In this document: positions 21,611-64,000 of the stretch, in pieces
How positions within the stretch are numbered: position 1 is the stretch's first letter
Layout: each line of letters begins with the position of its first letter
Assembly: GCA_973895155.1 (NCBI GenBank)
Contig: OZ316892.1
Location: forward strand, 4,112,410 to 4,176,409
Source: Marsupella aquatica
Taxonomy: Eukaryota > Plantae > Marchantiophyta
Reading direction: 5' to 3'
Length of the DNA: 64,000 nt
Notes under the pieces: model-generated
Databases searched by the model: none
The model's input: the letters and a program-made list of their open reading frames with translations, nothing else
What the model was told of the DNA's origin: nothing
Position numbers and translations under genes: made by a program

Positions 21611-21699
21611 AAAAGTCTACAAGTTTAGACAGATTGAAGACCACATGTCAATGTTAAAAATATGATGTTGACCATTTTGTTTTCAATGTTTCTTACCAG

Positions 21700-27196: not shown

Positions 27197-27664
27197 GAGA
27201 TAGGGTTGCTCTAGTGCCTACCCTGAATTGTATATTCATATTATGTCAAAGGATATGTTTTGAACATGTAGGATAAAGTAAATAATTATGATATGCTTAG
27301 TGTGAGGCTCTCTCACTGGACTGGACAATTTAATAATTATATAGTGGGTCAATCTCATTTTGACCCTTGATTTATGACCATATATATTTTTTAATTTATA
27401 GATGGTCTGAGTGGTATTGGCCTCTGATTTTTGGACTAAATCAAATTTACTCTAATTTTTAAATTAATTAGAATATATGATTTAAGTTATTATTAAACAT
27501 TTGGGTGAAAAAAAACAAAATTTTGGGCGTTCAAAAGTGTATATTTGGGCTGAAAAAAATTAACTTTTGGGAATGCTTTAATAGAAATTTGGCTTGAAAA
27601 AAAAACTTTAGGGTTCATCTTATGGACTTTTAAAAGTACAATTTTAATGAAAATAGTGATATTT

Positions 27665-32918: not shown

Positions 32919-35900
32919 TCAAGATTTGCAAATCGATTCGCTTTGGATCCTTTCCTCTTTACATCGAGGACAGGAGCAAACAAAACCATAATCAGCAAGC
33001 ATAGCCTGCCTATCTTCAAGGTCTGCATCTTCATCAATATAGCTTATTGTTATCTGCATGGAGGACAGTTCCAAGCAACCAACATTAGATATCCACCACT
33101 TGATATGTTCATAAAAAAATCCACACGACAAGTCAAGGCCAAAAACTAGAGCCAAATTAGACTCTCGATCTCAGACAAAGAATTCAGCTATAAATCGAAA
33201 ACCGTTATGTGCGAACCAAATCAGCGACACATCCCCTTTCTTTCGACACCAAGAGTTTCGTACGAAGTTGGGTAATCTCTCTTGTGCCTGTCAGAGGCAG
33301 TTTCTCGTAGTAGAGTCACGGATACGGTGAAATGGCCAAAGCTAGGGGGAAACTTATCTCAAAGGAAAGTACGGTGGATTCAACGAACTCATACGAGCCA
33401 CCTTTCACTCTTTTCAGTTAGGCCTAGCTGATAACTTCCCGAAGGATCACTTTTGATAATTCATACTGAAGATGCACTGGCAGACGAGCCACCAAAGAAA
33501 TATTCATCTTGGAAATTAGACTATGTTCATATGTAGTCTAAGGAGAAGAGCGAAGGAGAAGAGCGAAGGAGAAGAGCCGGAGGTACTGTACATACCTCCT
33601 CACCTTTCCTGATTGGCCTTGCTGCGAGCACCACAGCATGGCCATCCCTATCCTGGTGAATATCAATAACAGTCAAATTAGTACTGTTAAGGCTGGCAGT
33701 CAAAGTTAAGCTTCGCAGTTACATAAAGACGGGCATCAAGAGCAATATACTGCAAGACTCAAGACACTAGCACGAGAAAAGATAAATTAACGAACCTTCT
33801 ACATGACAGACATTACCTCTACAAATTTCGCTTTGAAACTTGTAAAACAAAACCTACCTCATCCCTCTTGAAGGCCTTGGCATTGGGCTGACAGGAATGA
33901 TTGATACAACTCTGTAGAGCAAAAAATCCTGAACCTGCAACATTGAAGCTGGGGTCAATTTCAAACCTTGAAGTGAAGCAAAACTTTGAGCGGAACCTGT
34001 GAGGCCCACAGACAACGTGGATCTTGCATGACATTTATCAGAGAAAGAAGCTAAGCAGAAATAACTTCGATGGACTAGTGAAAGGCAGTCAATAAACTTA
34101 AACAGCTGTCAATAAATGTTGCAAAGTTCAGGAAAGGGTACTACCTTGACAATAAGCTGCATATTCAGAACCCAAGGCATCTAAGAATGGCTTAACAATC
34201 AAGTCCGCTTCAGCCTGGTTACGAGATGTGACATGCAGAGATTTTAGCGAATTTAGTAATTGTCCATAATATTCTGTGCCGTCCAAAGAGATTGCCGTTT
34301 ACGAATGAGAAGAATGGATGCCACCGGGACCCAGAAACAAGGGGTAATTTTGAACAGCCGAACCTACTTTGGCCAAAGGTGGAAGATCATCAATGTATAT
34401 GAAATAGTCCTCCACTGGTGAAGCGACCACTATCTCCCTGAACATGTAACCAGCTAGAAAATTTGAGAGAGAATGTGAGCAGATTTATCTTCACAATGAA
34501 GAAAGCTTTTAGCTTATTTTCAAAAAGAAAAGTGAACATCTACAGGAGAAACCATTACAAGTTGTTTTGCTCGAACATGCCGATAACGTGCCCGTAAACC
34601 TCCATAGAAAATACTGAAGAATCCAGTTAAGGTTGGACATTGTCTACTACATTGAGATACCAACGTCCTTCAACAAAAGAAAGAACAAGCCCGGTAGAGA
34701 AAGAACAAGGCTAGGACTCCTTGATGCTTCCAACAATGATCCACAAGCACACTTTTACTACTCAATAGAGATCGAATGAAAATTTAAGGAATCGTACGTC
34801 TACTAGACTCGAGCTGGTTAAGGAGAGCAGAGAAAGGGAAAGAGTCGAGAAGGTAGTCGTTCACAAGGATACAAGGTGAAAACCCTTCTTCATAGACAGC
34901 TTCTTTCAAGTATTTCAAGGACTGCCAAACCAACATCCGACTGGATAAATTTCTGTACAAATTATGTATCCAAAAGTGTTTTCTTAATAAATAACTCATG
35001 AATACTTGTGCTGTCTTTAGTGTGGTTTTTCATCATTCATGATCAAACTCAAACTCTACCACCAGTATACTGTTCGAACATCTCGTTGCTTTAAAAGCTG
35101 GGAGCACACTAATAAAGCAAGTTGTTGCTGATATTTCCAACATTATGTTGATTCTTTCAAGATGACCTTTATATCTCAATCATTTTGGGAAACAAACCTT
35201 GGAGGCAAGCCCTTGTATCTGTTCTCTGAACGCTGTTTCCTCTGAGGAACTCATCCCGGATGGCAATGCAACAGCTTCCCACCACCTTCCACCCACACGG
35301 CAAAACGTTGGCAAAGTCAGTACATAGCAGGACCAACCAGCTGCTTTCACCCTAAATTAGACAGGCCAAACAGCTCCCTTAGAGCCGAATAATTACCTGT
35401 TGAGAACGCATCACACTTCAGATTATAGACTTCGGGATGAACCTTACAATTTCTTGTGGCCCATTGCAAAGGGCTCCCAAGCCTCCAGCAAAATATCGAG
35501 ATCGTCTTGTTCTTGGTCAAGACCTGTCAGCTTCCTCCGATTTTGATGTTCACATTTCTCATTCTTTAGTCTCCGTCCTTGCAAGATAGTCCCCGAGATG
35601 ACCTACAGGATTCAGGCCCAACACTTACCCAGGATTACTTATGCTCCGTTAAATAAAAACTTACAAGTCATGTCGTCACACGGCAATCGATATTTACATA
35701 CCTGGGCAGCAACATGAAATATGTCATTGGTTTCTGCACACGATAACTCGATGTTACAAACAAACATCAATTTTTTTCCAAATTCGAGCAATCGGATATT
35801 AATATATGAATGTAGTGGAACTACACAGGGCGCACACGTGTTCTTGACAGCGCATAAATACGTGAATCAGTTTTATAAGGATTCTCAATCCCAGTCCCAA

Positions 35901-37956
35901 AGCAGTATAGCCTACCTGTAAGCTGACCAACACACATAATTCAGGGCAAACTGTGACCTACCATCTGCAAAGTCCTTGAATCTGGCCAGGGCTTGTTGGT
36001 CCTGACACAGAGAACCTGGACCACTGCATAGAAGTGAGTGGTAGCTATTCCATGCGTCACCTGCACATGCATTGCTGGCACCAACACCGCTGTTACCAAC
36101 TCTTAACCAGAAGACGCTCCTACCTGCCTCCCAAGTACAGCTGAAAATTGACAGGTTCATCCAAATACTCTCCAGAAAAATAGATGGGTGCAACACTACA
36201 ACTTCAAGGTTCAGAAAACTGGAGTTAACTTTCTTAGCGAGAGCCTACACTACCTCAGAGCAGATGAAAGCCACAAAATCATTCTGCAAAGGACATTTGA
36301 AAACAATTCTGCAACATGGTGACTTCGCTACTACTTTAAAACTTGATCATTAACACGAACCTGCAAAAGAGTTCTTCATTGCAACCACCAAGGCAATTTA
36401 TTATTGCGGGTAATGGGAAGAGGTCCCTTTCAGGCAAGCTAATGTCACCATTCAAAAGTGCGTTCACGAGCTTTGCTGAGATAGGTTTCTTTCCACTCGG
36501 CAAGTCCTCACAACCACACCCTTCTTCCCCATCATTACTTTCCTGTCTACTAGATTCGTCGATATCCATAGCTAAATCCTCAAATCCCCTGGAGTTGGAC
36601 GCAGCTATTATTGGTCCATGTGTACTAGTATGCGATTGGTGATGATGTTGGGAAGCATCGGGTAAACACTCATCTCCTCCCTCAAGAAGTCGACGTCCAA
36701 TTTGAAGCTCTAGGGAGCCGATGTACTGGAAACAGAAACTGCAAACCAGAGCATCTGCCTGTTTGATTGAAAGACGTTCACAAATACAAGATGTCAGTTA
36801 GACCTCACAACTGTATCCTCGCTGTGCAAAAAAGAACAAGTGAATGTAAGTCATGGCCTTTAGGAACGTTCTCAAAAGTACTTTACATATACAGCAAAAT
36901 ACTTCAAGGACAGAAAAGAGAGGGCACCTTATTTGCAGTGTGTTGAGCTCCAACCAGCTTAGGTTCTCGTAGCACAAGATCATCCTCCTTAAAATCTCTC
37001 TCAGCAAACAAACCTGGAGGCACGCATTACGTACCAGGGATGCATTATATAAAGGAGATGGCATGGCATGGCATGGCATGGCATGTGCACGGTTCAGCGC
37101 ACACCTTTCACTACCAATTTGGAGAATCGGTAAAATTAGAACAAGGGTACATGAATGCCCTACCTTTTCCCAGAGCACCTCCAATCTGGTCCACTCGCAA
37201 CCCAGGTCCTCTTCCTGATGCTGACAGCTTATCATAATAATTCTGGTGGCACAGTCCCATCCAAAGTTTTAGATGTGGACACTTACTACACTCATGGCAG
37301 AGAAGCTAGACATCACACATCTACACTAAACTTGTCATGGACACTGCAACTGCATGAAGATAGTATTCAATACTTGCTCTGCGCACAAGGAATCTCAAGG
37401 GTTTTAAAGTTTAGAAGTAAGAATTGTAAAGAGCCCCCTATCGAGCCACTCTATTGTCCCTCAGTTTCTCAACTCAAAAATTCGGCTGGTATGTGAACTC
37501 TTATTCACCCACATCCTTCACAAGGCCAAACTAGTTCAAATCTATCCGCGATTGACACTTCACTTGTTACAACGAAGTGAATAACCGACTACAAACGAGG
37601 CAAAATCTCTGATACAACCAAAAATTCAATGCAAGTTCCCAAGCATCGTCAATGAGTGACTACATCGTCAATTCCCCTCTAACAAAACTAATGGATTACT
37701 TTTCAGAATTTATAACTTTCAAAGACGGACGATGAGACAAAGACCGCCTTCGCTGATAATATTGGACTCCAATGCAATGCGCGAGATGTGACATAGAATT
37801 AACAAAAACGATAGAAGGGATACTACTCATAGAAACAACAACAACCACAACAACAACATCAAATATTAAATACTACAAACTCACCCGCATGGCGGAATCG
37901 GGCGGACGTGCCAGCAGTTGCTCCACCATGACTACAGACCTGAGCTCCCTCGGCAT
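32919..37956 (-). CDS. ATXR2: ATXR2/SDG36-like SET-MYND lysine methyltransferase, 15 exons, ~511 aa
   Basis: Phase-consistent exons: 37956-37885, 37242-37164, 37013-36928, 36758-36361, 36074-35962, 35733-35702, 35602-35448, 35285-35198, 34921-34873, 34613-34559, 34437-34368, 34214-34145, 33934-33858, 33652-33596, 33053-32919. Motifs GKGLFA, LVCSFCF, IGMFEQNNL, QSCINHSCQPNA, GEEITISYID, YGFVCSCPRC. The start could instead be the ATG at 37929. Confidence 0.92.
34614..34872 (-). other. U12-type (minor spliceosome) GT-AG intron of ATXR2
   Basis: Donor GTATCCTT; branch site ACCTTAAC about 10 nt before the terminal AG. Confidence 0.85.
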
Positions 37957-40924: not shown

Positions 40925-41659
40925 CTACAAACTTCCTAGTGCCTTAGAAATCTCGGAGGTAACGTCTTTCGGAGATTTCTCCGCATGAAGATGGGCCACT
41001 ATTCCCTTCCGTTCATAATAGTCAACCACAGGGCTCGTTTGCTGATGAAAGGCCTCCAGCCTGCTCTTGAGAACGTCCGCATTATCGTCCTTCCTCTGGA
41101 TCAGCTTCTCACCGGTCACGTCATCGATCCCGGCCTTCTTGGGTGGCGCGAACTTTGTGTGGTATGATCGTCCACTGGCAGGGTGAATCCAACGACCTGT
41201 AATGCGCTCTTCGAGCACAGAATCTGCAATCTCGAAATCCAAAACCTTATCTATCTTGGTGCCCTTTTTCGCAAGCATCTCATCCAACTTCTGAGCTTGG
41301 ACCACCGTGCGAGGAAACCCATCCAGAATGAACCCTTTCGAGCACGACGGACGCTTCAGGGCTTCGTCAATGATGCCAACGACGAGATCGTCACTCACGA
41401 GCTCTCCCTTCTCCATGGCCTTCTTCGCCACCACTCCAAGAGGAGTTTGTGCCGCCACCGCGGCCCTCAGCATGTCTCCAGTGGCAAGATGACAGAGGCA
41501 GTAATCTTCTTTGATCACGGGAGATTGAGTCCCTTTTCCGCACCCGGGTGGCCCGATGAGGATCAATCGCTTCTCAGACTTTGGAGCGCATCGCAATCGC
41601 CTCAACACCTCGGTCATGAGGCTATCAATGGGCACGTCCTCCAAATTTGGCGTTGCCAT
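40925..41659 (-). CDS. ADK: Adenylate kinase (plant AK2/ADK3-4 type), single exon, 244 aa
   Basis: P-loop [49 protein letters not shown]; complete and uninterrupted. Confidence 0.97.
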
Positions 41660-44600
41660 CTTCCCAAGTCTCGATCGATCGAAAGAGAAGAGCTAATCAA
41701 GACGCGTCCGAGGAACAAATCTACTGACTTCCCAGAATCCCTGTCCCCGTTTCCTCGTTTACTCAATGTCAAGACGATCCAGCAAATCCGGCGGCTATGC
41801 AACAATGGCAGCTGTCTTGAAGCTCGAGTCGGCCCTACAAAACCGGCAAAAAACGGCTGCACCCGAGACCAATTTAAAATCTATAGGGTATTTAAAGTGC
41901 TCATCACGCAGTAACCCAGAAACGATCCGCATGACAATCTCCAGGTGCCACTTATTGCAGCCAACTCCCAAGTCTGAGGTGGTCATTGCATCCAAAGATT
42001 TACCTCTTAGGGTAGCAACACAAAACTAAACACAAACACATAGAAAATCCGCGGAAGAAAGATTCTTTCTCGTCTTTACCTAGCCCTCCAGCATGGTTAT
42101 AAAGAAATAAAAAGTCTTTCAAGATATTTCCTTCTCTTACAGTAGTCGATCACTAAATCACTTCGCCAACAAAAAGAATCAACAAATGCTAATCGTCAGT
42201 CTCCGGCCGCGCAGATGTCCCCTTACAACGAGACTCCCCGCTCTGTCTAAGACTAAACTCGAGACCATGGATTACTTCTCCACATCGCCGAACATCCGTC
42301 AAATGGACGGGGGCACACAAAGACCTAATAGGGGCGAACTACTAGTCTCTCACATCTCACCAAACTCGAAGATCTCCAAAAGACTGCTTCAAACAGATGA
42401 GACCACAAGCGTGTTATCAGCTCGATTGATCGATCGCCAGAGAGAGCTAGAGGGAGATCTTCGGGACCATACCTAATCACACATCGAAGGAGCGAGAGAG
42501 CAACCCGCAGCTGCCGATAGATCACTCCCTTCCGTTCTTTCACTCGCGCGACCGACCAGCAGCACCTCCCTCCATCATTCAAGCATTTTGGTGGATCGAT
42601 CTCCTCGAGTCCTCGTCGCCTCGATCGCTGGTCAGTAGAATAGCAGAATCCAACAATTGGAAAGCTGTGACACCTACTCGCAACCTCCGAAGAAATGGCA
42701 GCCCCTGTGATGTTGGCGTTGTCACAAAATCGTCGTGGAAACCTTCTTAGAGTCTTTACTTCACCAACTTCAGTCAAATGTGCTCACACGATTTCTCTGA
42801 GCTCGGATCCGATTTCTGCTGTCACGCGGAGTAATCGAAAATTTTCTCGTCTCCCCTAAAACAAGAATATGCTCTCATGGACCACAACGTTGGTCTTTGA
42901 AACCCCCATGGACCACAATTCCCAAAATTTGAGTTTAATTACAATAATCTCATGTTTTTCATTCAAATATTTTTTGGTTTTTAGTAGGTGCTAGAGGAGT
43001 AGGTAAGCTACACTTCCATAAAAGTGACCGTGATTTTTTGGCCATTTTGGTTGAATTATTCATCATGGAATTATTCATCATATTAGGTTAATTTCTATTG
43101 CATTAATATGAAATATTAGGGTTTGTGTGCTTTTGTGTCTCCTCCTTCTCTACTTGCCTTTCCAATGACAAACTAAAAATCATTTTCAGACTCATGGATC
43201 ATCAAATAAGCCCAAAACTCCCAAGTACCACCAAAATGTGGTCCACGGGAGCATTTTGTCCAACGTGGTGGTCGATCCAAGCCTCACTGTCCCGCTAAAA
43301 ACTTATCGTTTTGTTTTTCAGGATTCTGTTTTTGGCAACTGAAGCCCAGGTCTACCAAGCACGGGAACCATGCAACCCAAATGGACCCTGATGCCCTTTA
43401 CACCTTCACTCGTTGACACCTTTCTTGTAGCCCAGATGACTGTACCCAGCACATGAACCATGCATCTCAAATGGATGTAGACATCCTTTACATGTTCATT
43501 TGTTGACACCCTTCTTGTAGCAGAAAATGTTTCAGTTTTCAATAGACTAATTATAGATTTATCTATAAACTCACATGTTTTTTTATGCTCTAGAGGCAAA
43601 TACACCCTTCCAGTTTCTGAAAATGTTTCAATTTTAGTAGAGTACTAGATTTTTAAGGAAAAATCTAGAGGCTAATAGTGCCAAGTAAACAAAGTTGGGG
43701 CAGAAGGTTAGATACCATACTAGAGTTTTCTGTAAAGTGGCAGACTTAGGTGAGTTCTCTATTATTTGGTAGGGTTCAGACTGAGTTTTTGTGAGTCATC
43801 GGGTAGTTTTAAAGGATACTCATTCTAGGATTAACTAACCACATTTTTTTGAGTTTCACCCTCTAATTTTAGATATAACTCTAATGTGTCCTAAAATGTG
43901 AGAATTCTGAAAAACTCATGGTGAGATTGCAAATTGCTTGTGCTCTGATCCTATTTCTGTCTTTCTAGGATGTTACGACGAGCAATGGAAACTATTTTCT
44001 TCTCCCCTAAAACTTATATGTTTGTCTTTCAGGTTTCGCTTCTCAAAATTGAAGCCTGGATGGACCAAGCCCTTGAACCATGCAACCCAAATGGACCATG
44101 ACACCATTTCAAACCTTCCCTTGTTGACACCTTCCCCAATTCCATAATTAAATGTTTCAAGAGTAAAGTTTTATATGTCTATAGACTATAATATGCAATC
44201 TCACTCTTTCTTTCTTATGTGGTCTAATTAAGAAATGTTGCTTTCGCCAGAAGCCTCCCTGGCCATTGGATTATGGTGATATGTTTCCCTAACCATGAGA
44301 TGGACATAAGGGTGTTAGTGTGCCCTTTCCCATGCCCGACCCCCACCAAACCTGTCACTCTCCTTAACTTGCACACTGACTCCTTGAATCCAGTTGTCAG
44401 GCCTACTTGCTGATCAGCGCTTTCCTGCCTGGCCATCTCACTTATGTTCATCAACACTTCCACTCAACATTGTTTACTATTGACATTAATAACTACACAA
44501 TGCACAGGTATTGGACTAGTCTTCAATACCTCTCTTGATGCTCAATTGAATCGGGTTTTAATGGGCCTGTTAGAATCCTCCTTGAAACATCCTTCCAATG

Positions 44601-50062: not shown

Positions 50063-50392
50063 GAAATGGGACACAGGCATTTGATTGTGATCACTTTGTG
50101 GTGCTTGCATCAGCCAATGCCTGTTAAGTGGATACCATAGGGGCAAGAGACGTCCTAGGAGTAGGATGATCGCCACAAAGGTTGGGAGGGCAAGACGAGG
50201 GACTGCGGTAGGCGATATCTTTCACAGATATTGGGTCTCCTCACATGTCTCAGGTCTCTTGCAAAGGTGTGGCCCAACCGGCGTTCAACATAGTTAGGGG
50301 TCTCTTAGCTTCATTGCGGGTACATACAAAATTCTCATAGGTTTTGTGGGTTGGATGCAGACAATGAAGGGGTTTAAGAGAGAACCTGGACC

Positions 50393-53300
50393 ATGAGGAC
50401 CCCACGCGAGAGACTGGAAGCTGATCGGGAGTGGCATGCCCAGAACAGGGCAGTCACAAATGCAAGGCGTCGCCAACGATATGCTGAGCGACGACTACAA
50501 GAGAGGGCTGAAGTGTGTACGGTGCCACAACCAACTTCCACACCAATTGTGGGACCTTTGGTTGCGGTAGCAAGTATTCCACCAAGTCCGATACTTTTGG
50601 TACCAAAACCAAGTGAGACAAGTGCTGCACCAAGTGTGGCGTCTGCCTGCACAGTTAGTGGTCGACAACTACGGCACGAAGCAAGGGCACCGCGGCGGGC
50701 ACCAACAACATCATTGGCCTCCTTTGAGGGGGCAAGTACAGGACCAACTTTGGCATCTGCGCGCGCAAATAGTGGAAGGCAGCTTCACCGTGAAGCAAGA
50801 GCTGCTCAACAGGCATCGGCCAGATCCATTGCTATTGGTACCAGCCAAGATCCGGTGAATGGATTATCCAACTTTCCCATGTTCAATGAAGGTTGGCTCA
50901 TCGATGGTGCCTTGGACGCATGTGGGGTTGACCAGCCTCCAGAGGATTTTGCCATTGGCCCACTGTGCGAGCCCATAACCAACAATGGGCCACAACACTT
51001 GGACGTCTTTGAAGAGGATTGGCTCATTGATGGCGCTTTACAAGATGGGGTTGCCTTTATGGCTCAGCCCCCACCCTGTGAATCCATACCAAACAATGAA
51101 GAGTCTAACCTTGACATCTTTGATGAAGATTAGCTCATTCATGGTGCTCTTCACGAGGGGCCAAATCCGATCCTTGATGATGGGGGTGATCAATTTGACA
51201 CGTTTGTTGAGGGCACCTTGGATTTGTCAAATGAAGATGGAGAAGAGGAAATTGAGCATATGCTCCAAAAGGAAATGGGAGGCACAATCTTGCGCCATAT
51301 ACTCCGGCTCAACCCAATCCACGTGTTCTTTTGCAGGAGCGCCAAAGACTAGAATAGATCCAACAGTTACCAAAGGCAAGACAGCCGTTGGACCCTTCAA
51401 TGGGTCGACATCTTTTGGGACGCATGAACATTGAGTGCCCACAATGCAAAGCGCTTCATTGGATCGAAGAGTGCAAGTCAGGGACGCAACGCAACCCGTT
51501 CTTTACCATGTGTTGCGCCAGAGGGAAGGTGGTATTGTCTGAACTTGGTGATCCCCCTGAACCTCTACGGAGTTTGTTGATTGGTACCAATGTTGTAGCT
51601 ATAGCATTCCGGAAGAATATTCGAGGCTACAATAATGCATTGGCATTTACGTCCCTAGGTGTTAAAATTGACGAAAGGGGTGGTAATCAAGGCCCATATT
51701 CCTTTCGTATCCAAGGAGCATTATATCATTGTGCCGGTAGCCTCTTGCCGCCTGATGGAGAAGGACCAAAATTTGCTCAATTGTATATTCATGATACAGA
51801 AAATGAGTTGGGAAACAGGTAAATAAGTAATATGTGCAACATTCTTGCAAGTTTTTTCCTTTAATATTCTAAGTATGTTTCCAGCAACTAAGTTGTGTCT
51901 CATGGTTTTTTCTTGGGTTGTAGGATGAATAGGATGCCACAATTGGATCATGTTGTGTTAGCTTCATTGCAAGACATGCTGCATACGTACAATCCATATG
52001 TGAGGCTCTTCAAAAATGCGGGGAGCCGCATTGATGGCACTGAGGTGGCAGAGGTATCGCTACGTATTATAGCGGAGCGAGATACTGACCCTAGGCGCTA
52101 TAATAAGCCCACAACAGATGAAATTGGCGTGATTGTGGTGGGAGAGGAAGGTATTGAAACGCGTGGTAGGGACATTATCCTAAGGAAGAGGAATGGTGGC
52201 CTACAAAGGATTTCTGAGTGGCACCGGTCGTATGCTCCCCTTCATTATGTTTTGCTTTTTCCTCATGGACAGGATGGGTGGTCTTATGACATCCCATTGG
52301 CAGGCCATGAATTCCAAGATGGCTGTTGAACCAGGAGCCAGGGGTGGACGAAATGGTTCTAAGAAGGTGACCCAACTTCAGTACTATGCGTATAGGTTAC
52401 ATGCAAGGCGGGGAGATGATTGGTTGCTTCGTGGAGGACGATTGCTCAAGCAATACATTGTAGATGCTTATGCATGTATTGATCAAACACGACTCACCTA
52501 CATTCGTAATAATCAGAAGAAGCTAAGGACCGAGTTGTATCAAGGGCTACAAGATGTAGTTCAAAATGAGGACGCACGAGCAAGTGATGTGGGTAGGACC
52601 TATATTCTACCATCAACCTATGGAGGCAGTGCACGACATATGATGCAGGCCTATCAGGCGGGCTATCAGGATGCCATGGCAGTTGTTCGAACATATGGGC
52701 CTCCAGACCTTTTCATAACTTTTACGTGAAATCCTGAATGGCCTGAAATCAGAGCGGAGTGCTACCCCTACTAGACCCCGGCCAACCGCGATGACATTGT
52801 GGCAAGAGTATTCAAACTTAAGTTGAAGGCCCTATTGGTGGACATTCGGGCAGGGGTATTAGGTAGACCTATTGCTTCTATGTATGTCATCGAATTTCAG
52901 AAGAGGGGTTTGCCGCACGCCCACATACTGATAATATTGGTGGAACGACATAAGTTGCGCACCCCGGAGTTGGTTGACGAATTGGTTTTGGCAGAGATAC
53001 CGGATGCACGAGTACATCCCCAATTATATCAGACTATTATGAAGTCCATGGTCCATGGTCCATGCGGTCGCGGGTATCCAAACTCACCTTGCATGGTTGA
53101 CGGGCAGTGCAGCAAGGGCTATCCGCGATCATTTTCATCTGAAACAATTTTTGGAGATGATGGGTATCCTTTGTATCGACGTCGGGATGATGGCCGCAGT
53201 TTCTCAAAAGATCAAAGCACATTTAAGTTTGACAATAGGTGGGTTGTTCCTCATAGTCCATATTTGAGCATGAGATTTAATGCTCATATCAATGTGGAGA

Positions 53301-53837
53301 TTTGTTCTTTGATTAAAGCAATCAAGTATTTATATAAGTACTGTTATAAAGGGCACGATAAAGCAACGGTGGAGGTTGAGCAATGAGACAAAGTAAAGGA
53401 ACATTTAGATGCCAGATATGTGTCTGCTGCTGAAGGAGTATGGCGCATCAATCAGTTTGAAATGTCTGAGAGTACTACTTCAGTGCAAAGGTTGCAAGTG
53501 CATTGTGAGGGGGAACAATCGGTAATGTTCAATGAGGATTCTGAGATCAATGATGTGGTCCAACAAGAATCTCATAGGGACACAACCCTCACAGGGTGAT
53601 TCAGAGCTAACACGGTACATGAACGTGCGAGACAACTTTTCTACAACAATTTCCCCAATGAGTTTGTGTGGGATGCATCCTCCCGTGCATGGAACCCACG
53701 AAGAAGAGGGTTTAGCATTGGTAGGATGTATTTTGTGCCGCCAGCCGTGGGTGAATGGTACTACTTGAGGGCGCTTCTTCTTCACATCAAAGGTGCAACA
53801 TCATTCATCGACCTTCGCACATTTGAGGGCAATGTAT
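50393..53837 (+). pseudogene. Helitron RepHel N-terminal and Rep (HUH) region, disrupted
   Basis: CPQCKALHW..CCARGKV, NIRGYNNALAFTSLG, KFAQLYIHD, DLFITFT*NPEWPEI, IEFQKRGLPHAHILI, KYLYKYCYKGHD; intron ~51819-51923. Confidence 0.93.
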
Positions 53838-54625
53838 CACTACAACACTATGCACCTCTTTTGCGAACCACCACCCTTCGCATCATACAAAGGAAACAAA
53901 ATCTGAAATACCCAATTTGCGAACTTACTCGCATCGCAACGTCTTCGCTACTTCCCATCTCAAATTCTTTGCAAACGGCCCTTCGCAACTACTTCGCAAC
54001 TTGCGATTCTAAATACGTCGCAACATCTCCGCAACGTTGCGACGGCACTGTCCTTGCAAATATTGAGAAACGACAAATTTCATTATTTTGCGAGAACAAA
54101 TGAATCGCTCGCGTTGCGGTAACATTTACATCGCAATTTCCGATGTTAAATTTCTCTATAACTTGCGATGCAAACAAACTCGTAAGATTGCGAGAAGCGG
54201 ATGACCGCTTTGTTGCAAAGGCATTTAACTCGCAAACGTGTGGAGAGGAAGTCTTTGCTAGGGTTGTGATTTAGACAACATCGCAAGTATTGCGATGCAT
54301 TTCTCCTCGGAATGGTTGCGATACGTTCACCGTGGGTCTTTGAGATGGGGGTTGGTTCTCAAAAGCTTCGCAAAATGTATATTTCATGGGTTTTTGTGTA
54401 TTTGGGTTAGGGTGAGGGTGAGGGAGACCATTCATGGGTTTTGAAGGAGGGAGGAAAGTGATGTTGACCCAGTCTGCCGCAATTAAAATGACATTACTGA
54501 AAAAGTACAAAAGTTACAAAATGGAAGGGTAAAAACCCTTAGGTAAAGTGCCACGGCCATGCATGCTGATCGCTATACATGTGAACTCGATGTAAGTGCT
54601 CTAGCTACAACTTGTCTACATCGAG

Positions 54626-56724
54626 CTAGAAAGGAGTGTTCCTGCCCCTCCTTGCCTTCTTCCCCTTGGCCTTCTCCTTGCCCTTGTGTGCTCTTGGGGG
54701 GGGTGCAACCTGGACTTCCTCCTCCTCTTGGTCACCCTCGGGGTCACCCTCATCCTCATCCTCATCCTCATCCCCACCTCCACCGCCCTGGCTTGCCGCG
54801 CTACCACCCCCAGCACCACTGGAACGTGCTGATGCAAATGACTGGTCTCCAGTGCTAGTTGGCCTGGCTTGAGTAGCAGGAGCTGTGCTCCCCTCCCCTG
54901 TCCCCTCCACATCCTCATCACTACTATCGGTGCCACCCTCGGTATGGGAGTCACCATCCTCCCCTCCCTGCTTCCATTAGCAAACCAGGGTGTCTGTTAG
55001 TCTCATATTCTTTACAAGTGTGAACAAAAGAGATATTCATTCAAAATTGCAATGAATGTAATAACCTAAAAATTCTCACCAATAATTCATCAACTTGCTG
55101 AAAGAGATGCTCCTTCCCATGTTTCTGGCCCACCTCCATCTCAGCCGCCGTAATCTTCCTCTTGTACCTCTTGTACTAAGCCAAAACAAAACCAGCACAA
55201 TTGGGTTAACACCAACCCATAACCCGATTCACATGGCTTCTAAAAATTAGGGGGTTTGTTGGGGCTGGTGGGGTGGTGCATCAAGGTTTTGGGGTTATGG
55301 AGGGTGGCATATATGGGGAAGACCCTCAAAGAACACTTAAACGATCGGAAAATTTAAAAATTCAAATTTTTGAAATTTTGCGAAGGCGCCAGCTTCGCAA
55401 TCGTAAGGACAATTACGTTTGCGAAGCTGGTTGCGATGCGAACGTCTTCGCAACGCCTTCGCAAACGTAAGCAAAAAAAGGGCATAATAAGGTTTGCGAA
55501 GGATTTGCGAAGCTACCCGCATCGCAAATGTATCGCAAACTTTGTCATAGCAAAAACCCGAGAGGGAAGCAACTGTACGTGACCTAATCTGACACAACAA
55601 GTCTAATTGTAACTACTTGGTGGAAATGCAAGAAAGAGTTGGCTCATTGCAGGTGTGTTGGAATAGGAATTGGAGTAGCAAGAAGTCAAGGGAGGAGAGG
55701 GAGGTGCACTCACGAATGCTGCTTTGAGGCCGGGGAGGCCACCTTGACCCAGCCTGTGGGTGATGTTGGGCTTGTCTCGGACTCGCTCAGCTGCCTTCAG
55801 GAACTTGTTGGGTGGATCGCCTACTTCTGCTACAACCTGCTGGAGCTGGGCTACCTTCTGCTCCATCACCTTCAGGTCCCGGTCAGACTTCCCGGCCTCC
55901 TTTGCCCTTCGAGCCTTTGCCAGCTTCTCTGTGAAATCATTGAGGAGCCTGGCTGCTTTCAACTTCACCTCTGTCTGGTAGAAGGCCTGCCAGATATCTT
56001 CTGAGAACTGCAGCGGCCTCTGCAAATTCCTATACTCCTCCAAATCTCTAAGGTGAGACCTGATCTTCATTCTATCATGGTATCTAGCTTGTGACATGGA
56101 GTTTGAAATTTTGTCAGCAAGCCACTGTGAATCCATCTCTCCTCCATTTCGAAATTCATCTTTCACCTGATTGATGACTCGCTTCTGCTCTGCCTTTGAG
56201 CGAGTGCCCCACTCGACTCCTCTTGCAAAATTTGTGGATACAATGTGCCTGATTGTGCTCTTGGCCCCATTGTAAGCAAGCTCGGTGGGAATCCCCTCAT
56301 CCTCTAAAGTAATCAGAGGCAGCTTCCTCCTTGCTGCCTCCTTCTTTCTTTGCTCCTCCCTCTGTTTCCTGATCAGGTCTCTCTCATCTTTCCTCCTCTT
56401 CTTTTCCAATGCTTGAGGCGAGAGCACTCCAGCCTGAGCTCTCTCGTCCCTCTTTCGCTTCCTCTCAGCAGCCGCCTGCTCTGCTGCCTTCCTTGCATCC
56501 TCCTCCACTGCTGCTTACCCTGCAGTGAGACCTGCTTGCAAGGCTTGGCCCAGAAGGGCACTCAATGATGCCAGCCCTGCTGGACTGGTGAAATCAATTT
56601 GACTCAACTGTGCAACCGAAAAATGCTCATCCACAATCGCCTTCAATCGATCCCCCCCCCCTCGGTTGCCTCCGCTGCTGCAAGAAGCTCCTCCGTCACC
56701 ACCAGTCCCCTCTTCGCTCGCCAT
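54626..56724 (-). pseudogene. CACTA second ORF (TnpA/ORF2-like), about 3 exons, one in-frame stop at 56515
   Basis: ORFs 56515-56880 and 55603-56508 are in frame. Donor GTGAGT at ~55713, small exon ~55177-55080, and an acidic/basic tail exon ending at 54626. Confidence 0.55.
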
Positions 56725-57444
56725 CGCTCCGCCCTTGCCCTCGTTGCTCTCCTCAGGCCTGAATGAACTGAATCCGCCTTGTCCGCGTTCGGCAATCCAT
56801 AAGGATTCAAAATATTGGGCTTTGCGATTCGTTTCGCATCGCAGTTTGCGATGCATCGGCCTTCGCAAAAAGCTTCGCAAATTCTATCTTTGCGAAGCTT
56901 CAAGATTCGCAAAAGCCTTCGCTATTTGGTTTTGGCATAACCCCCGTCTCGCATGCGTATTTGATGTGTTGTTAGGGATACTAAGGGGGCTTATGAACAT
57001 TAAATGGGGTAGATGTAGAGGATTATGTTGCATTTTAGTGGGATGTGATGAGATAAGGATTGGGGGGGTTAGAAAATTGAAGGAGTTATATTGCAGGGTA
57101 AGAGGAGGGGGTTTGGCCTGGTTAGGGGAGGGTTTCTTTTGTGAAGGTTGGGCTTAGATTGGCTTAGATACGAGGGGTTTTATGTTTTGGGTTTGCAGGG
57201 GGGTTTTATTTATGAAGGTTGGGGTTATATGTATTGGAGGGTAAGAGCTAGGAGGGGTTTTATGTTTTGGGTTTTGGGGTTTAGGCCAACTTAGGAGGGT
57301 TTGAAAGAGAGGTTTCAGTTTTATAGTATCTTGGGTTACTTTTATGGTATCTTAGGAGGGTAACCAAGAGGGGTGGCATATAATTATGGTAGAGAGAAGC
57401 ATAGGATGGTTGAAGGGAATTGACCATTTAGGTTTTTGCTAACT

Positions 57445-58500
57445 TCATTGGCTTACGCTTTTAGAGTTCCCAAGGGTCTATGGTGGGTTTTTATTGCATG
57501 ACACTCACCTTTCACTTGAAGCGGGATGAGGTTTTGGTTTTTATGCTAACAATTGAGGGAAATCCCATGTAATCATGATCCAGTGCAGGACCATCACTGC
57601 TTCCTCAACTTTTGTCTAATGCATATGCATTGTGGGAACCCGGACATCTAAAAGGTATATTTAAACATGTATGTTAGCAGGGTTTGATAAAGAGATTGTT
57701 CATAAACCTTGTCCTTCTTTGTTGTGCAAGAATATCTATATGCACATGTTTGGGGGTCTACAACTTGAGAGAAGCTAATGGCTATCCAAACTTACTTTTT
57801 TGTTTCCAGTATTTTCCTCGTGCTTCTAGATTCAGCTCATGTTCAATGAGCCACACGACCTACAGGCACTATTGAGTCCGGATCTCATTCAGGTAATTAT
57901 TGTCCAACTTCATTCTGGGCTTAGGCCTTTAGAGTTTTCCCAGGGGTCTAGGGTGGGTTTTTATTGCATGACACTCACCTTTCACTCGAGGGGGGATAAG
58001 GGTTTAGGGTTTAGGGTTTTATGCTAACAATTGAGGGGAAAACCCATGTAATCATGATACAACGCAGGGCCAACACTACTACCTCAACTTTTGTCTAATG
58101 CATATGCATTGTGGGAACCCGGGCATCTAAAAGGTATAACATCATGTATACAGTCAATGTTGTTAGTACAGATTTTTATGCTTGCCCTTCTTTGTTGTGC
58201 CATGATATATGTGGGTAAATGTCTAAGATTCCACAACTTGACGGCTGCTAATTACCATCCAAACTTACATTTTGTTTCCAGTATTTTCCTCCTACTTCTA
58301 GATTTGGCAAATGTTCCAAAAGCCACGTGACCTATAGGCACTGTTGAGCCCGGGTCTCATTCAGGTAATAATCTAACCTCACTTAGGACATAGGGTATTA
58401 CAATTTTCCCAAAGGTTATAATGTGGTTTCTTCTTGCATGACACTCACCTTAATTTGGGTTTCATGCTAACAAATATAAAAGGGTAATAAAATCCCATGT
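57445..58500. repeat. ~465-bp tandem duplication (2 copies plus a partial) upstream of the CACTA transposase
   Basis: TTGCATGACACTCACCTT occurs at ~57495, 57964 and 58434; TTTGTCTAATGCATATGCATTGTGGGAACCCGG occurs twice. Confidence 0.85.
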
Positions 58501-58606
58501 ATAAACCAACCTAATTGTTTTTTGAGTTCATTTTTTTAAAAATTGCTTTATATATGGCCTAATTTTTCCTAATCATGCCCTACATGCAATGTAATGTGGC
58601 AGTGGA

Positions 58607-58832
58607 TATGTCCTCTTCCTCTGAACTATCCAGTAGTGAGTACTCCTCCGATGACGATATACCCCCTCCTCCTCAGCCCGAGGTTACTGGTCCTCGTGGT
58701 CCACCCCGAAGACTTTGTGACTGCACCAGATGTGTGGGCCAAATTTCTCAAAAATTTTATGTGTGTGCTCAACATATTGAGAGATATGGACGTCATAGAG
58801 GTCTTACTCCCGGGGCTTCTTCATCCCATATG
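58607..58832 (+). CDS. First coding exon of the CACTA transposase locus (transposase-associated Cys/His domain-like)
   Basis: MSSSSELSS...LCDCTRC...CAQHIERYG; ends ATG|GTAAGT, a phase-0 donor. Confidence 0.65.
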
Positions 58833-58943
58833 GTAAGTTTGTTTCAATTGATTGCCGTTCTTTACTGTTATTTTTAGAGGTGAATCAATGTTTACACATA
58901 TGGTTTACACATTTGGTTGTTTGTGGGTGTTTGCATGGAATAG

Positions 58944-59774
58944 GGATCCAGTATGCGTAGATTGGTGACACCACCACCCTATGTCCCATCACAAGGAGTT
59001 TTAGATGCTATAGGCAATGCACTTTCACAAGCCTTGGGTTTGGGAATTAGTACCAGTCATGGGACAGAAGGGGAATACCCTCATGTGCCCACTGAGACAC
59101 GAAGACCCCGGTCCAGGCCCCAATCCAACAGGAGGCCACGAGCACCCAATGACCCATCCAGAACACTAGTTCAGGGTAGGTGGGGTGTTTGTTCATTCAC
59201 TGGCAAGTGTGCCTCTATCATCAAGGATTGGGAACCTATCACTCTTGGCTTGCCTTATTTTACAGATTTTGATGAGGAGATTGTGGTTTGGGGTAGACGT
59301 TGGATTGTGAAAACTTCCACACTTGGAGAGAGACATGGATATGGAGTATTTGCTTGTGAGGATATCATCATGGATGAGGAGGGTGGGTCAAGTGTTCGTG
59401 GTAGAGAGGGTCCTACTTTGTTCCCATACGGTGGACCCATCTACAAGAGAAGACATTGGAACATGATCCTTGCACAACATCCTGAGTGGAAAACATATGC
59501 TCTAGAGATGGATACTTTTGATGGTAGCACTAGAAGGTATAGTGAGCAGCGGGTGATAGATGGTGATCCCATACGTAATGGGAATATTGTTGGTTTCATA
59601 AATAGTACTGTGGGGACTCGGCCCAAGCGTAGGGCCAATTGTGAGTGGGTTTTTACTGATGGTCCAATGCCAGCACCATATGGCACGACATATCATAAGG
59701 ACCATTGCTTAGTTCTTGCTACTAGGACCATTAGAGCAGGAGATGAGTTATTCACACACTATGAGTGGGATTAG
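58944..59774 (+). CDS. Intact SET-domain exon inside the CACTA element
   Basis: STLGERHGYGVFACEDI, LFPYGG, IDGDP..GNIVGFINS, ANCEW, VLATRTIRAGDELFTHY; phase-0 acceptor TAG|GGA at 58943/58944. Confidence 0.85.
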   Translation, partial: GSSMRRLVTPPPYVPSQGVLDAIGNALSQALGLGISTSHGTEGEYPHVPTETRRPRSRPQSNRRPRAPNDPSRTLVQGRWGVCSFTGKCASIIKDWEPITLGLPYFTDFDEEIVVWGRRWIVKTSTLGERHGYGVFACEDIIMDEEGGSSVRGREGPTLFPYGGPIYKRRHWNMILAQHPEWKTYALEMDTFDGSTRRYSEQRVIDGDPIRNGNIVGFINSTVGTRPKRRANCEWVFTDGPMPAPYGTTYHKDHCLVLATRTIRAGDELFTHYEWD

Positions 59775-59985
59775 GAAATCATGTCCTTTATCCTCTTGCA
59801 CCTATTTTGGACTTCCCATTTACTATTATATATATGGCCTTTGGGCTCATTTTGGAGTAATAAGGTTTTAGCCCATGCATTTACTTTAATTCTTAATGTC
59901 TTGAATGAATGGTGTTAAGTCTATTTTAATTTGTTGTACTTGGTCAAATATACATGAGGAGGTTTTTTGGTTGTAATGTGCATAG

Positions 59986-61517
59986 AATGCACAACCATCT
60001 CAACAAATGTTACCACGAAGGTTGAGAGCAACATATCGGGAGATGGGTATGCCAGAAGAGGGAGAACCATCAGAGGGTGATTCCTCATCAAGTAATGATG
60101 TAGGTGGTGCTGATGAGGAAGCCGCACCTCGGACTGATGACCAGGTCATGCATGATCAAGATAGAGCCATGGATGACTTCATGGTTGATTGGTTTGGTGC
60201 CGATGTTGAGGATGATGTGCCTCACATTGGTCATGAGGTTGGCCCTTCAAATGACCCACGGCCACAACATACTCCAGAGGGACAACAACAATGGAAAGAG
60301 GCAGAGGAACATGCTTGAACCTATTTTTGAGGGTGCTCGGTTGAGCCGTCTTTCTGCCATATTGGGGCTCTTGAACATTCAAGCCAAACACAAGACAAGC
60401 AATTCTATGTTATCAGACATATTTGAATATTGTCATGACTTGATGTTACCCTCGGAGAATGTGTTGCCAGGGACCTGGAAGGATGCAAAGAAGGTTCTCT
60501 CATCCATTGGTATGGATTACCATATTATTCATGCCTGTGTGAATGATTGCATGTTATTTCACGGGGATACAACCCATATCACAGAATGCACAGTGTGTCA
60601 TGAGCCACGGTATGAGCCAAACATGCTAACCCAGAAGGTACCAAGGAAAGCAGTTCGTTGGTTCCCCATAATTCCTCGCTTGTTGCACATGTATAGATGT
60701 TCTGACTTGGCCGAGTTGATGGTATGGCACAAGAAACATCGTTCGGAGCCCGGTGTCATGCGATTACCAGTTGACTCTCCTGCTCATAAACATGTGGAAT
60801 CAACATGGCCAGATTTTGAGCGTGACCCTCGGCATGTGCGACTGGGGTTGGCATCAGATGGAGTTAGCCCTCATTCACTTGGAGGGAAGGGGAGACCTAC
60901 ATCGGTCTGGCCTGTGGTTCTCATGAATTACAACCTTCCACCATGGTTGTCCATGAAAAAGGGTTTTTTGTTGCTATCTTTGATTATCCTAGGGCCAAAG
61001 AAGGTGAAGAACATGGACACCTATTTGACATTACTGGTTCAGGAACTCCAGAAATTATGGGAAGGAGTATGGGCATATGATGGTCGAAAGACTACAGGGG
61101 GTACCCCACTGGTTTTCAAACTCAAAGGGGTTTGTATGTGGACCATGCATGACTACCCAGGTAAGAACTTTGTTGTTTAAATGCATCATATTCTAATGCA
61201 TGGTATCCCCTCATTTCCATGTGCTCCTAACATAATGTGTGTTTATATGACCAGGATTTGGCTTTGTGAGTGGGTTGCAAACCCAAGGCTACAAGGATTG
61301 CTCCACTTGTGGCCCAAGCCTTGGTGATGTAGCCAAGTATTCATCACATCTTCGCAAGATTGTTTATCTTGGGCATACAAAGTTTCTTCCAATGGGACAT
61401 CAGATGAGGCGTGACCCACTACTATTTTCCTCTATTGATATGCCCTTTGGTGACGAGCGTGATGTACCTGAGCCAACAACTTTTACACACTAGAAAGACA
61501 TGGCTGCAAGAGTTGCA
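59986..61517 (+). pseudogene. CACTA TnpD/Tnp2 (Transposase_21) N-terminal half, frameshifted and truncated
   Basis: IHACVNDCMLF, CTVCHEPRY, FPIIPRL, RLGLASDG, SVWPVVLMNYNLPPW, WTMHDYPG; intron 61161-61254. Confidence 0.93.
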
Positions 61518-62159
61518 AAACCAAAACATTCACAAAATGAGACCCTAGACAGGCACAGGATTTGCGAGCCTATTACATGGCTGCAAGTTAGCCATATATT
61601 CCACAAACATCGCTCATTTGCGAGACAATAAGACTCGCAAAATATTTTGAGATGCTTAAATATTCGCAACCATTTAGTTTTCCAGCGCATCTCAATGAAT
61701 TTGCGAAGCGGTAAAGATCGCTAACTTGTTCAATGGTAATTGCTTCGGAAATGTTTTGCGATACCTGAAGTGTCGTAAAATGTTGCGATGGTCTAAGTTT
61801 CGCAATTATGTGTTGCGATGTGTGTAAACCCTAAACCCTAAACCCTAAACACATCGCAACACATAATTGCGAAACTTAGACCATCGCAACATTTTATGAC
61901 ACTTCAGGTATCGCAAAACATTTCCGAAGCAATTACCATTGAACAAGTTAGCAATCTTTACCGCTTCGCAAATTCATTGAGATGCGCCGGAAAACTAAAT
62001 GGTTGCGAATATTTAAGCATCTCAAAATATTTTGCGAGTCTTATTGTCTCGCAAATGAGCGATGTTTATGGAATATATGGCTAACTTGCGATAGTAATAG
62101 GCTCGCAAATCCTGTGCCTGTCTAGGGTCTCATTTTGTGAATGTTTTGGTTTTGCAACT
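61511..62159. repeat. Long inverted repeat: ~312-bp arms around a 25-nt spacer containing (AAACCCT)3
   Basis: 61511-61823 is the reverse complement of 61849-62159 with a few transitions and one short replaced patch. Confidence 0.93.
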
Positions 62160-63087
62160 TTGAGATGGTGGTATCTTCGGAAGTTTGCGATGAGGGAATG
62201 ATGGCAATTAGGGAGCAGTTAAGTATCGCAAATGTAGCGATGAGTTTGCGGGTGTAGGGGTTTCGCAAGATGTTTCGCAAAATATTATGAGCGCTTCAAA
62301 GAGGTGGAAAAGGAATGGGATTGGGGAGGGAGGGTAAAGGAGGGTGGATACATGTAATTTTTAGGGAGGGACAATGAAAAGGAGGAGGAAGGGAATGGGG
62401 CTAGGAGGGACAAGGAACGGAGGGATCCAAGAGGGAGGATACAGGTTTAGGGGGCACAAGGAAATGAGGGAGGAGGAAGGGTATGTAGATATAGTTTTAG
62501 GGAGGGTTTGGATTTAGGGAGTGAAAATAAAAAGGAGGGAGTTTAGGGTTTAGAGAGGGACAAGGAAAGGAGGGAGGGTATTGGTTTAGAGAGGGACAAG
62601 GAAATGAGGGAGGTTTAAGGGTATAGGTTTAGGAGGGAGGAGAGAAGCTAGGTTGTATAGGTAAGAGTGGGGGACAGGGGTGGAAAGTAAGGAAAGTATA
62701 GGGTTGAAATAGAAAGCCAGGGGTTGGGACAAGGAGAGGAAGGAGGAAGGAGGGTTTAATAAGAGGGACAGACAATGAAAGAAAGGAGGAGGGAGGTGGG
62801 TACAAGTAATAAGGAGAACAGCTAGGGGGGGATTAGGAAAGCATGGAGGATAGAGGACTACAAGCAACATGAGTTTTCTTTGCATAAAGTCTACCAAAAG
62901 GTGTGGTGAGTGTGGGGTAGGGATGGGAGATATAGAAAACAACATTTGAAAATGATATACTTACAAAACATAAGTTTATTGATAATTGAGAAGCACATAT
63001 TTCTCCATTCTACCGAGAAGAGAAATCTTCATATCATCAAATCTAACTATATATCCGTGTAGCTATATATCCACAAACACAGACCCC

Positions 63088-64000
63088 TCAAACTTGGTCC
63101 TCATCATCTTCAGGTTGGGACACAACCAGAATATCAGGCTTTTCCCCAACGATTGAACGAGACCGTGGCACATATGTGATGACAAGTGACCATTCCTCTG
63201 GGTTTGGGGGGTATGGAATATAGAAACATTGTTCCACATGACTTGGAAAAGTGAACGGCTCTGATGTTTGCCAATGAGATGGCTGGAAACTAGTGGCAGA
63301 CGTCTTCAGTCGTGTAAATCCACACTCATCTTGAACCACAGTAGGATTGTTACCTGCAAGGTTCACTTTGAACCACTTGCACTTGAAGACATACTCTTCA
63401 AACTTTGATTGTGCATCATAAGATATCACTAGAATCTCTTCTACCTTTCCATAATGTGGCACAACATCTCGAATAATATTTGTGTCATGGCGACTGCTGC
63501 GGGAATCTTGAGAGAATTGTCCTTGAACTCCACAATCAAAGGTACGACCCCTCTTCTCATCAAGGGAAGAAATCCTAAAATCCATCAAACCATAAGGATA
63601 TGTTACACAAAAATAGACACAAACATATTCCAATTAATTGAACACACCAAGAATCTGCCTCTTCAATATACGTGCTTGTATTACAAATGAATTAAATTAA
63701 ACCAAGTGATTCAAATCAAAGGTTACTAAGGTAGATGGAGATCACTGAAATGTCTTCCTTGTGTCCACATTGCTGTCCTTGTTGTAACCACTCTCAAGGG
63801 ACCATGAACAATGGTACGAACATCATCTGTGATAGCCGGAAAATGTAATACACTCTCTCCCCTGACCACCATGTCATCCCCCTCAACTAACTTCTCCTTC
63901 ATATAGTCAAGGTACTTTGGAAAATCCTTGGTCTTGTGCTGTTACTTTTGGCATCCTCATAGAAATCCCTCCATTCTTCCATGATAGTGCTGTTACTCAC
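63088..64000 (-). pseudogene. CACTA transposase C-terminal region (DUF4216-like and upstream exon), opposite strand to the N-terminal half
   Basis: TFDCGVQGQF, HYGKVEEIL, VFKCKWF, QDECGFT, EPFTFPSHVEQCFYIPYP..WSLV. Confidence 0.85.

Follow-up and report, generated by a model that had tools for sequence, protein, structure and literature searches.

The 64,000-nucleotide stretch of the liverwort Marsupella aquatica analysed here (contig OZ316892.1, positions 4,112,410 to 4,176,409; hereafter the window) carries a CACTA element that begins at position 53838 and whose right terminus lies outside the window. Within the first coding intron of its transposase gene the element holds an exon encoding a SET fold, which, judged by sequence comparison, is a constant component of the element, retained across deep lineages and under purifying selection. 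The reading put forward here, tentatively, is that this exon is spliced to the transposase's zinc finger and that the product methylates lysines of chromatin in the element's favour. Splicing of exon 1 to the acceptor at 58944, with the RNA ending in the spacer behind the SET exon, would give a finger-linker-SET protein of 351 amino acids, and joining exon 1 to 59986 instead would produce the transposase in its usual form, finger-Tnp2-DUF4216; the SET exon would be an alternative last exon of one transcription unit. The finger-SET protein would methylate chromatin lysines and keep the element expressible, most likely by countering host silencing, and the element's own DNA-binding proteins, sitting on clusters of the motif TCGCAA, would bring it to the element. 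The parts of the gene on which this reading turns are the following.

58608-58832, plus strand: exon 1, the first coding exon, with a Ser-rich start and a CxCxxC-x13-H zinc finger of the transposase-associated type (by profile comparison).
58833-58943, plus strand: intron 1, 111 nt, phase 0 (from the sequence).
58944-59774, plus strand: SET exon, consisting of a Pro/Arg-rich linker of 71 residues and a SET-fold core of 205 residues (by Pfam, predicted fold and selection).
59775-59985, plus strand: AT-rich spacer of 211 nt, likely the 3' untranslated region of the SET form and, in the transposase form, the last part of the long intron.
59986-61160, plus strand: transposase exon with an acidic linker and the start of Tnp2 (PF02992, E = 4e-39), frameshifted near 60318.
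61255-61510, plus strand: next transposase exon, with a stop at 61491-61493 where a relative has Trp (by comparison with relatives).

Exon 1 opens with an ATG at 58608, runs for 75 codons that include CDCTRC-x13-H and ends as ATG|GTAAGT; on a rough splice matrix, its donor at 58832 is among the two best in 58600-61300. The acceptors read AG|GGA at 58944 and AG|AAT at 59986, and a reading-frame check bears out the initial annotation, which had placed the donor and both acceptors in phase 0. That annotation had drawn the exon as 58607-58832; its end and its finger motif stand, and its start moves to the ATG. It had also taken this exon for the first of the element, a view that probably does not hold: candidate non-coding exons lie upstream in a tandem repeat, which suggests that exon 1 is first only among the coding exons. 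Alignments to diverged contigs reach 58367 within this repeat and pick up again at 58599.

57441-58451, plus strand: degenerate 470-bp tandem repeat with putative non-coding exons that have AG and GT ends (for example, 58282-58364).

The splice sites are kept among the related loci listed, all of which except L004 come from one family: the donor GT in 15 of the 15 loci with exon 1, the AG of the first acceptor in 14 of 15, and the AG of the second in 20 of 21. Intron interiors in these loci diverge from the window in sequence and in length, and the agreement at the sites is, on this comparison, not chance. In the distant locus L033 (33% SET identity), the donor and both acceptors are again in phase 0, the acceptors having been chosen by eye. 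It is quite likely that both splice forms, 58832 to 58944 and 58832 to 59986, share exon 1, because exon 1 resembles the standard N-terminal finger of CACTA transposases. Ordinary CACTA transposases start with a CPCxxC-x13-H finger; against a profile of this region, the window exon outscores 200 of 200 shuffles, and hhalign matches exon 1 to the N-termini of flowering-plant transposases at 86% (E = 5e-6), the sequences in both comparisons having been cut around the Cys/His motif. The Pfam search for PF13963 gave no match for the window exon and matches below the cut-off (E = 0.03) in the predicted proteins P0083 and P0147, the latter of which lies outside the SET clade and has its finger directly on the transposase. 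If the finger is part of the transposase, a full-length transposase needs exon 1 to be spliced across the SET exon, and the kept acceptor at 58944 suggests that the finger-SET form exists too.

Predicted proteins of Riccia and Calypogeia have the finger joined to SET, or parts of SET joined to the transposase. Among the 15 joints listed for each of two contig comparisons (four contig sets each, from five runs in all, not recorded as RNA; 72 and 3 further joints lie beyond those listed), none skips SET or matches the predicted splices; at contig joints near the introns the letters in between are undetermined, and these contigs were read as diverged families. An in-frame fusion of SET to the transposase was considered and set aside, as the window SET exon has no phase-0 donor above threshold on the same rough matrix, whereas the predicted proteins P0021, P0090 and P0134 do join the two in frame. 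Telo-boxes were likewise rejected as a signal: two lie upstream of exon 1 in the window, and they are not conserved in relatives.

The SET exon has 276 codons without a stop up to the TAG at 59772-59774, as first annotated, and its Pfam SET match (E = 1.5e-5) is above the cut-off. Its predicted structure has a mean predicted local distance difference test score (pLDDT) of 75, and Foldseek returns 276 matches with this model at E up to 0.001, the best at 3e-7. Set1, PRC2, SET7/9, SET8, NSD2 and LegAS4 all match the model at tied Z scores of 11-12, and viral SETs match it as well as cellular ones do; on this modelling, the exon has a SET fold. The motifs GxG, YxG and ELxxxY are all present in the window, as G132-Y-G134, Y162-G-G and E268-L-F-T-H-Y273. 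Across 30 diverse SET rows with a mean column identity of 23%, Y185 is kept in 30, the second Gly of GxG and E268 in 29 each, Y273 in 28 and N220 in 26, and N232 is kept likewise; the 28 rows with the last Tyr have 2 to 27 residues after it. Y162, N220 and Y273 align to Y135, N181 and Y220 of LegAS4, with the offset in numbering derived by hand; a catalytically dead allele of that enzyme has six altered residues, these three among them (bioRxiv 10.64898/2026.05.29.728679). T184-Y185 may correspond to LegAS4 S158-Y159, in a by-eye reading that differs from the HMMER alignment, and Y231 of LegAS4 is unmatched, as the window protein ends at D276. LegAS4 methylates H3K14, and its histone site is described as highly acidic (bioRxiv 10.64898/2026.05.29.728679). 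With these residues in place, it is reasonably likely that the SET protein is catalytically active.

The search for the origin of this SET was dropped: the PDB sequence search was not significant, fold matches to PDB and viral structures were tied, and the SET tree lacked an outgroup and had long branches. A host SET gene occupies approximately 32900-36800 on the minus strand (Pfam SET, E = 0.004), a putative ATXR2. Its exons at 33822-34034 and 32922-33170 carry NHSC and a post-SET CxCxxC, and the SET of the element has neither, in keeping with the earlier remark that the two are unalike.

A word search with the SET frame found 46 related proteins, a search of representatives at 50% identity 95, and a profile search 86. 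The minority of matches with an organism name are all from bryophytes, namely five Sphagnum species, Calypogeia fissa and Riccia sorocarpa. A metagenome scan with the SET sequence gave at least 33 loci; among the 33 listed, 30 are 84-97% identical to a Sphagnum jensenii protein, L004 represents a third family, and L032 and L033 stand at about 33% SET identity. The transposase exon was found in 21 of the 24 listed loci with more than 280 nt downstream; in the others, L033 has a linker that looks similar by eye, other sequence intervenes in L022, and L032 has nothing. Exon 1 was found in 15 of the 20 listed loci with at least 270 nt upstream, the motif of the finger is present in L032 and L033, and L017, L023 and L024 are either interrupted or cut short. 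The initial annotation had asked for the presence of the SET exon across copies of the family; the layout recurs in the Sphagnum-type family, in proteins of Riccia and Calypogeia and, at 33% identity, in a further locus. The exon is not bounded by repeats of its own, the longest repeat common to the flanking introns being a 9-mer in U-rich tracts and the longest inverted one 7 nt. In a quick transposase tree of 55 rows, the four SET-linked rows form one branch with a Shimodaira-Hasegawa-like approximate likelihood ratio test (SH-aLRT) support of 97, which fits a single old capture.

Selection was estimated as the ratio of nonsynonymous to synonymous substitution rates (dN/dS) between the window and the family majority, with L032 and L033 excluded throughout and L004 kept out of the majority. 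The ratio is 0.09 for exon 1, 0.06 for Tnp2 and 0.13 for a divergent accessory gene described below; for SET, it is 0.23 (0.15-0.35) in the core, 0.17 in the strict domain and 0.38 in the linker, and comparisons of SET with L004 give 0.15-0.29. With values of 0.17-0.29 between families, the SET exon does not evolve neutrally. SET has diverged less than Tnp2 at silent sites (23 of 67 versus 47 of 92 fourfold sites, p = 0.04), and dS, taken between the window and L001-L031, is 0.65 for SET versus 1.5 for Tnp2; splicing constraints or exchange of modules between families could lie behind the latter difference. Moss and liverwort copies are very alike, the window being 70% identical to Sphagnum and 72% to Calypogeia (P0001, P0002, P0037), and this similarity, together with an unsaturated dS to the Sphagnum-type family, hints at horizontal transfer. 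Two Calypogeia fissa proteins, P0124 and P0131, are very divergent members of the SET family and may belong to other carriers or be domesticated genes; the N-terminus of P0124 is different and rich in Cys and His.

The frameshift and the stop that had been noticed in the transposase are both present, and Tnp2 is paired with DUF4216 (PF13952, E = 3e-8). The evidence does not, however, support reading a meaning into the contrast between an intact SET and a broken transposase. A near-identical, high-depth form in public contigs has two extra bases at the frameshift and a different sequence beyond 61517, and on this account the frameshift, the stop and an inversion described below are, as read from the sequence, decay of this one copy. 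Decayed copies lose both parts alike, with 15 stops in 4917 codons of SET versus 11 in 2454 of Tnp2 (p = 0.40).

A candidate address to which a SET protein could be brought lies in the non-coding parts of the element, where TCGCAA half-sites are clustered.

53838-54400, plus strand: left end, with the terminus CACTACAACA and a subterminal region of 17 TCGCAA half-sites (by motif counts and a terminal 10-mer in common with L005, L008 and L028).
54630-56760, minus strand, outer limits approximate: divergent multi-exon accessory gene, a candidate for a TnpA-like DNA-binding protein, with its main exon at about 55690-56514.
55370-55540, no strand: 10 clustered TCGCAA half-sites within one intron of the divergent gene (by motif counts).
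56820-56915, no strand: cluster of six TCGCAA half-sites at the 5' end of the divergent gene (by motif counts).

The element has 57 TCGCAA half-sites against 2.8 in shuffles, and the remaining 53.8 kb of the window has 13. A further cluster at 61500-62300 contains 23 half-sites, partly doubled by a hairpin, and TGCGA-N11-TCGCA pairs occur 14 times at the 11-nt spacing, some of them doubled in the same way. Clusters stand at corresponding places in relatives, that in the intron of the divergent gene recurring in L002, L005, L006, L008, L028, L029 and L031, and TTGCGA-N11-TCGCAA palindromes cluster in the window element (53838-64000) as well as in L028 (6255-16147). The observed-to-expected CpG ratio is 1.2-1.5 in the end clusters, which are not depleted, and 0.3-0.5 in the coding parts, which are. 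The divergent gene occurs at the same place and on the same strand in seven related loci, and its protein is modelled as helical at low confidence (pLDDT 59). It stands head-to-head with the transposase, in an arrangement other than that of Arabidopsis EN/SPM, which is described as tandem. The Arabidopsis protein TnpA-Spm1 binds clusters of CCVTCGCAAA and, via host demethylases, brings about CG hypomethylation (bioRxiv 10.64898/2026.08.24.746577). By analogy, the common TCGCAA core suggests that the element has a TnpA-type system, for whose protein the divergent gene is a candidate, and recruitment of SET through the element's DNA-binding proteins on these clusters is more likely than recruitment through the small finger alone, the tether proposed in the initial annotation. 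That the substrate is a histone and that the protein acts at the element is possible, though doubtful. The most specific version has a new minimal SET subfamily working as a splice-switched histone writer, whose mark at the TCGCAA clusters would prevent host silencing by H3K9 or H3K27; it is more doubtful still.

Several observations weigh against a spliced finger-SET protein that methylates chromatin, and rival explanations draw on many of them. An in-frame ATG follows soon after each acceptor in two families, that of the window and the Sphagnum-type one (codon 4 and codon 8), so that either open reading frame could be translated without exon 1; the database proteins in which domains are joined are gene predictions whose basis is not stated; and, as the loci were fetched by their SET match, family members without SET could not appear. 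These ATGs, and another right at the SET acceptor in L033, would suit an arrangement with no choice over a shared exon, in which SET and transposase are separate or serial open reading frames with ATGs of their own and just one of the two includes exon 1, and some Arabidopsis En/Spm families do use separate genes (PMC13547354). Nevertheless, AG and phase 0 are kept at both acceptors, the first Met after the second acceptor of L033 is codon 60, the codons between the 59986 acceptor and its ATG keep their number and partly their residues, and the finger belongs to the transposase in relatives, which makes such an arrangement quite unlikely. It is very improbable that the exon does nothing for the element, whether as a host gene fragment captured passively in the manner of Pack-CACTA or as an insertion in its own right. 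Polymorphism within the Sphagnum-type family would allow it, as pN/pS among its decayed copies is a near-neutral 0.87 for SET, next to 0.95 for exon 1 and 0.50 for Tnp2, but the low dN/dS between families, the same position at 33% identity, the encoded transposase and the lack of longer repeats in the flanking introns all speak against it, and no conventional host SET appears among the 95 and 86 matches. On these sequence comparisons, passive capture is already largely refuted.

Further points concern what the SET protein does once made. SET is less constrained than the transposase (0.23 versus 0.06). SET methyltransferases have a canonical RFINHxCxPN motif (PMC3980110); its His is replaced by Ser in 29 of the 30 rows (GFINST in the window), Y162 is Phe in 13 of them, and the protein stops three residues after Y273, so that the post-SET cap and an equivalent of LegAS4 Y231 are missing; the earlier description of FINS in place of NHS, with no post-SET cysteines, agrees with this motif alignment. 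All this would be expected if the same splicing produced a non-catalytic SET that binds a histone tail or host writer and so shields it, or a finger-SET protein that competes with the transposase and damps transposition. Such a role is nonetheless unlikely, given that GxG, the Asn, the Glu and the last Tyr are kept at so low a mean identity and that LegAS4 has Phe at the position of the motif III His, yet is active. As for an active enzyme, its substrate cannot be read from the predicted fold, in which the top matches are tied: SET7/9, SET8, PRC2 and viral SETs stand level with activating writers, and the net charge of the window core is -2, a crude proxy and not strongly acidic, against the acidic histone site of LegAS4. 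The target could then be a non-histone protein (a silencing factor of the host, or one of the element's own proteins, transposase or accessory), or the mark could be a repressive one on host or own chromatin; this is similarly unlikely, no direct evidence supporting it and the characterised accessory proteins of plant transposons, in the available accounts, countering silencing. Finally, the address itself has gaps. TCGCAA half-sites are absent from 57000-58607 just upstream of exon 1, none of the element's sites matches the full Arabidopsis motif CCVTCGCAAA, and the divergent gene, in which a TnpA-type protein would show PF03004 or a tandem HTH, has no family match by Pfam, hhalign, Atlas (best 0.80) or Foldseek and could not be placed as a TnpA by these searches.

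Several known systems come close to this element. In En/Spm of maize and EN/SPM3 of Arabidopsis, TnpD and TnpA come from one gene by alternative splicing (PMC13547354; bioRxiv 10.64898/2026.08.24.746577). The present element resembles them in its CACTA ends, 3-bp target duplication, Tnp2 with DUF4216, subterminal clusters with a TCGCAA core and a second protein predicted from the transposase gene; it differs in that this second product is a SET fold within the first coding intron and that a separate, divergently oriented gene, not a tandem one downstream, is the TnpA-like candidate. SET genes have also been found on transposons. PAG2, an accessory gene of red-algal Plavaka elements (EnSpm superfamily), is described as combining a DNA methylase domain with SET (bioRxiv 10.1101/2025.02.11.637652), and SET genes occur on HarbingerS and oomycete MuDR elements (Repbase Reports 2014, cited in PMC12730594) and on Helitrons (bioRxiv 10.1101/2025.02.11.637652); the SET genes of these last three have been proposed to counter silencing (PMC12730594; bioRxiv 10.1101/2025.02.11.637652). 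Like Plavaka, the liverwort element belongs to the EnSpm/CACTA superfamily and carries SET; compared with PAG2 by description, the element has no methylase domain, is of a land-plant Tnp2 lineage and holds SET as an exon inside the transposase gene. Pfam results for the SET exon, P0001 and P0002 contain SET only, without the DNA methylase PF01555. The other carriers are likewise DNA transposons with a SET gene, but of other superfamilies and hosts, and their available descriptions mention no shared exon.

Element-encoded proteins paired with clustered CG-containing motifs in non-coding parts are also a likeness to VANDAL VANC and TnpA, although these are DNA binders that cause hypomethylation, and neither is a histone-modifying enzyme, unlike the SET protein proposed here. 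The fold is shared with RomA/LegAS4 (H3K14), SET8, SET7/9 and viral SETs (Z 11.0-11.5), as is the lack of post-SET zinc. LegAS4 has the highest identity among the top fold rows (30% over 130 residues) and is also without the motif III His; its sequence match is not significant (E = 0.13), and the element's protein has no ankyrin part and a shorter tail. Neither ancestry nor substrate can be inferred from this likeness among minimal SETs. SETMAR is a single-copy host fusion of SET and transposase sequences. The present gene has both in one gene as well, but in a mobile unit, with SET ending in a stop and no strong in-phase donor found for a fusion.

Transposon-borne SET is thus already known, and the land-plant form with a shared exon was not found in print. 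No published report of a land-plant CACTA element with a SET exon came up in a search that left Repbase, most subscription papers and two preprint supplements uncovered; supplements with 962 Spm protein models and curated EnSpm sets may include such an element. The term 'SET domain' is absent from the available main texts of PMC13547354 and bioRxiv 10.64898/2026.08.24.746577, the accessible part of PMC13317346 does not mention SET, and nothing to the point turned up in PMC11982613. The SET genes on oomycete and red-algal transposons have been described from sequence only (PMC12730594; bioRxiv 10.1101/2025.02.11.637652), and bryophyte transposons lie partly in facultative heterochromatin (PMC10952607). 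The exon in moss and liverwort CACTA elements offers a candidate enzyme that is small and soluble, with clear controls at the active site, and it comes with a defined choice of splicing and a candidate address on the DNA; in bryophytes with transformable models, the question of whether transposons write histone marks becomes directly testable. The element also probes whether a SET domain without the His and the post-SET tail can work. If the proposed reading is true, this would be the first plant transposon to edit histones enzymatically.

The remainder of the element bears the marks of damage and rearrangement.

61511-62159, no strand: hairpin of TCGCAA-rich, subterminal-type sequence, a rearrangement junction (by self-alignment and motif counts).
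63091-63941, minus strand: 3' transposase exons including DUF4216 (the PF13952 match), inverted relative to related elements and running past the end of the window.

The hairpin, 649 bp long and near-perfect, is centred on three CCCTAAA units of telomere type. It could have arisen by fold-back repair or from two copies lying tail to tail, or be an artefact of the assembly. Similarity of the transposase to relatives stops near 61510-61530, at the hairpin. Within the inverted 3' half, the DUF4216 stretch covers 63091-63633 on the minus strand, unlike in L014, L015 and L028, where it is on the same strand as Tnp2. The terminal 10-mer of the left end is identical to the starts of L005, L008 and L028, and L021 and L028 have right ends of the CACTA type (one mismatch). 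The 9,893 bp of L028 (6255-16147) make up a complete element with CACTA-type ends and a 3-bp target duplication, which was checked in this locus as the sole one with both ends. In L021, an internal deletion at 2385-2449 makes the transposase jump to the right terminus, with SET kept.

The insertion site at 53838 reads as a Helitron-like helicase frame, a label taken from the translation without a family match, and decayed Helitron-like Rep/helicase frames at about 50100-53837 are interrupted by the CACTA element. Elsewhere in the window, an uninterrupted adenylate-kinase-like frame at 40928-41692 on the minus strand, so labelled from its translation, is possibly a retrocopy. Clusters of long, unannotated open reading frames (up to 729 amino acids) at 11057-14724 on the minus strand and 19879-27200 on the plus strand resemble other large transposons with accessory genes.

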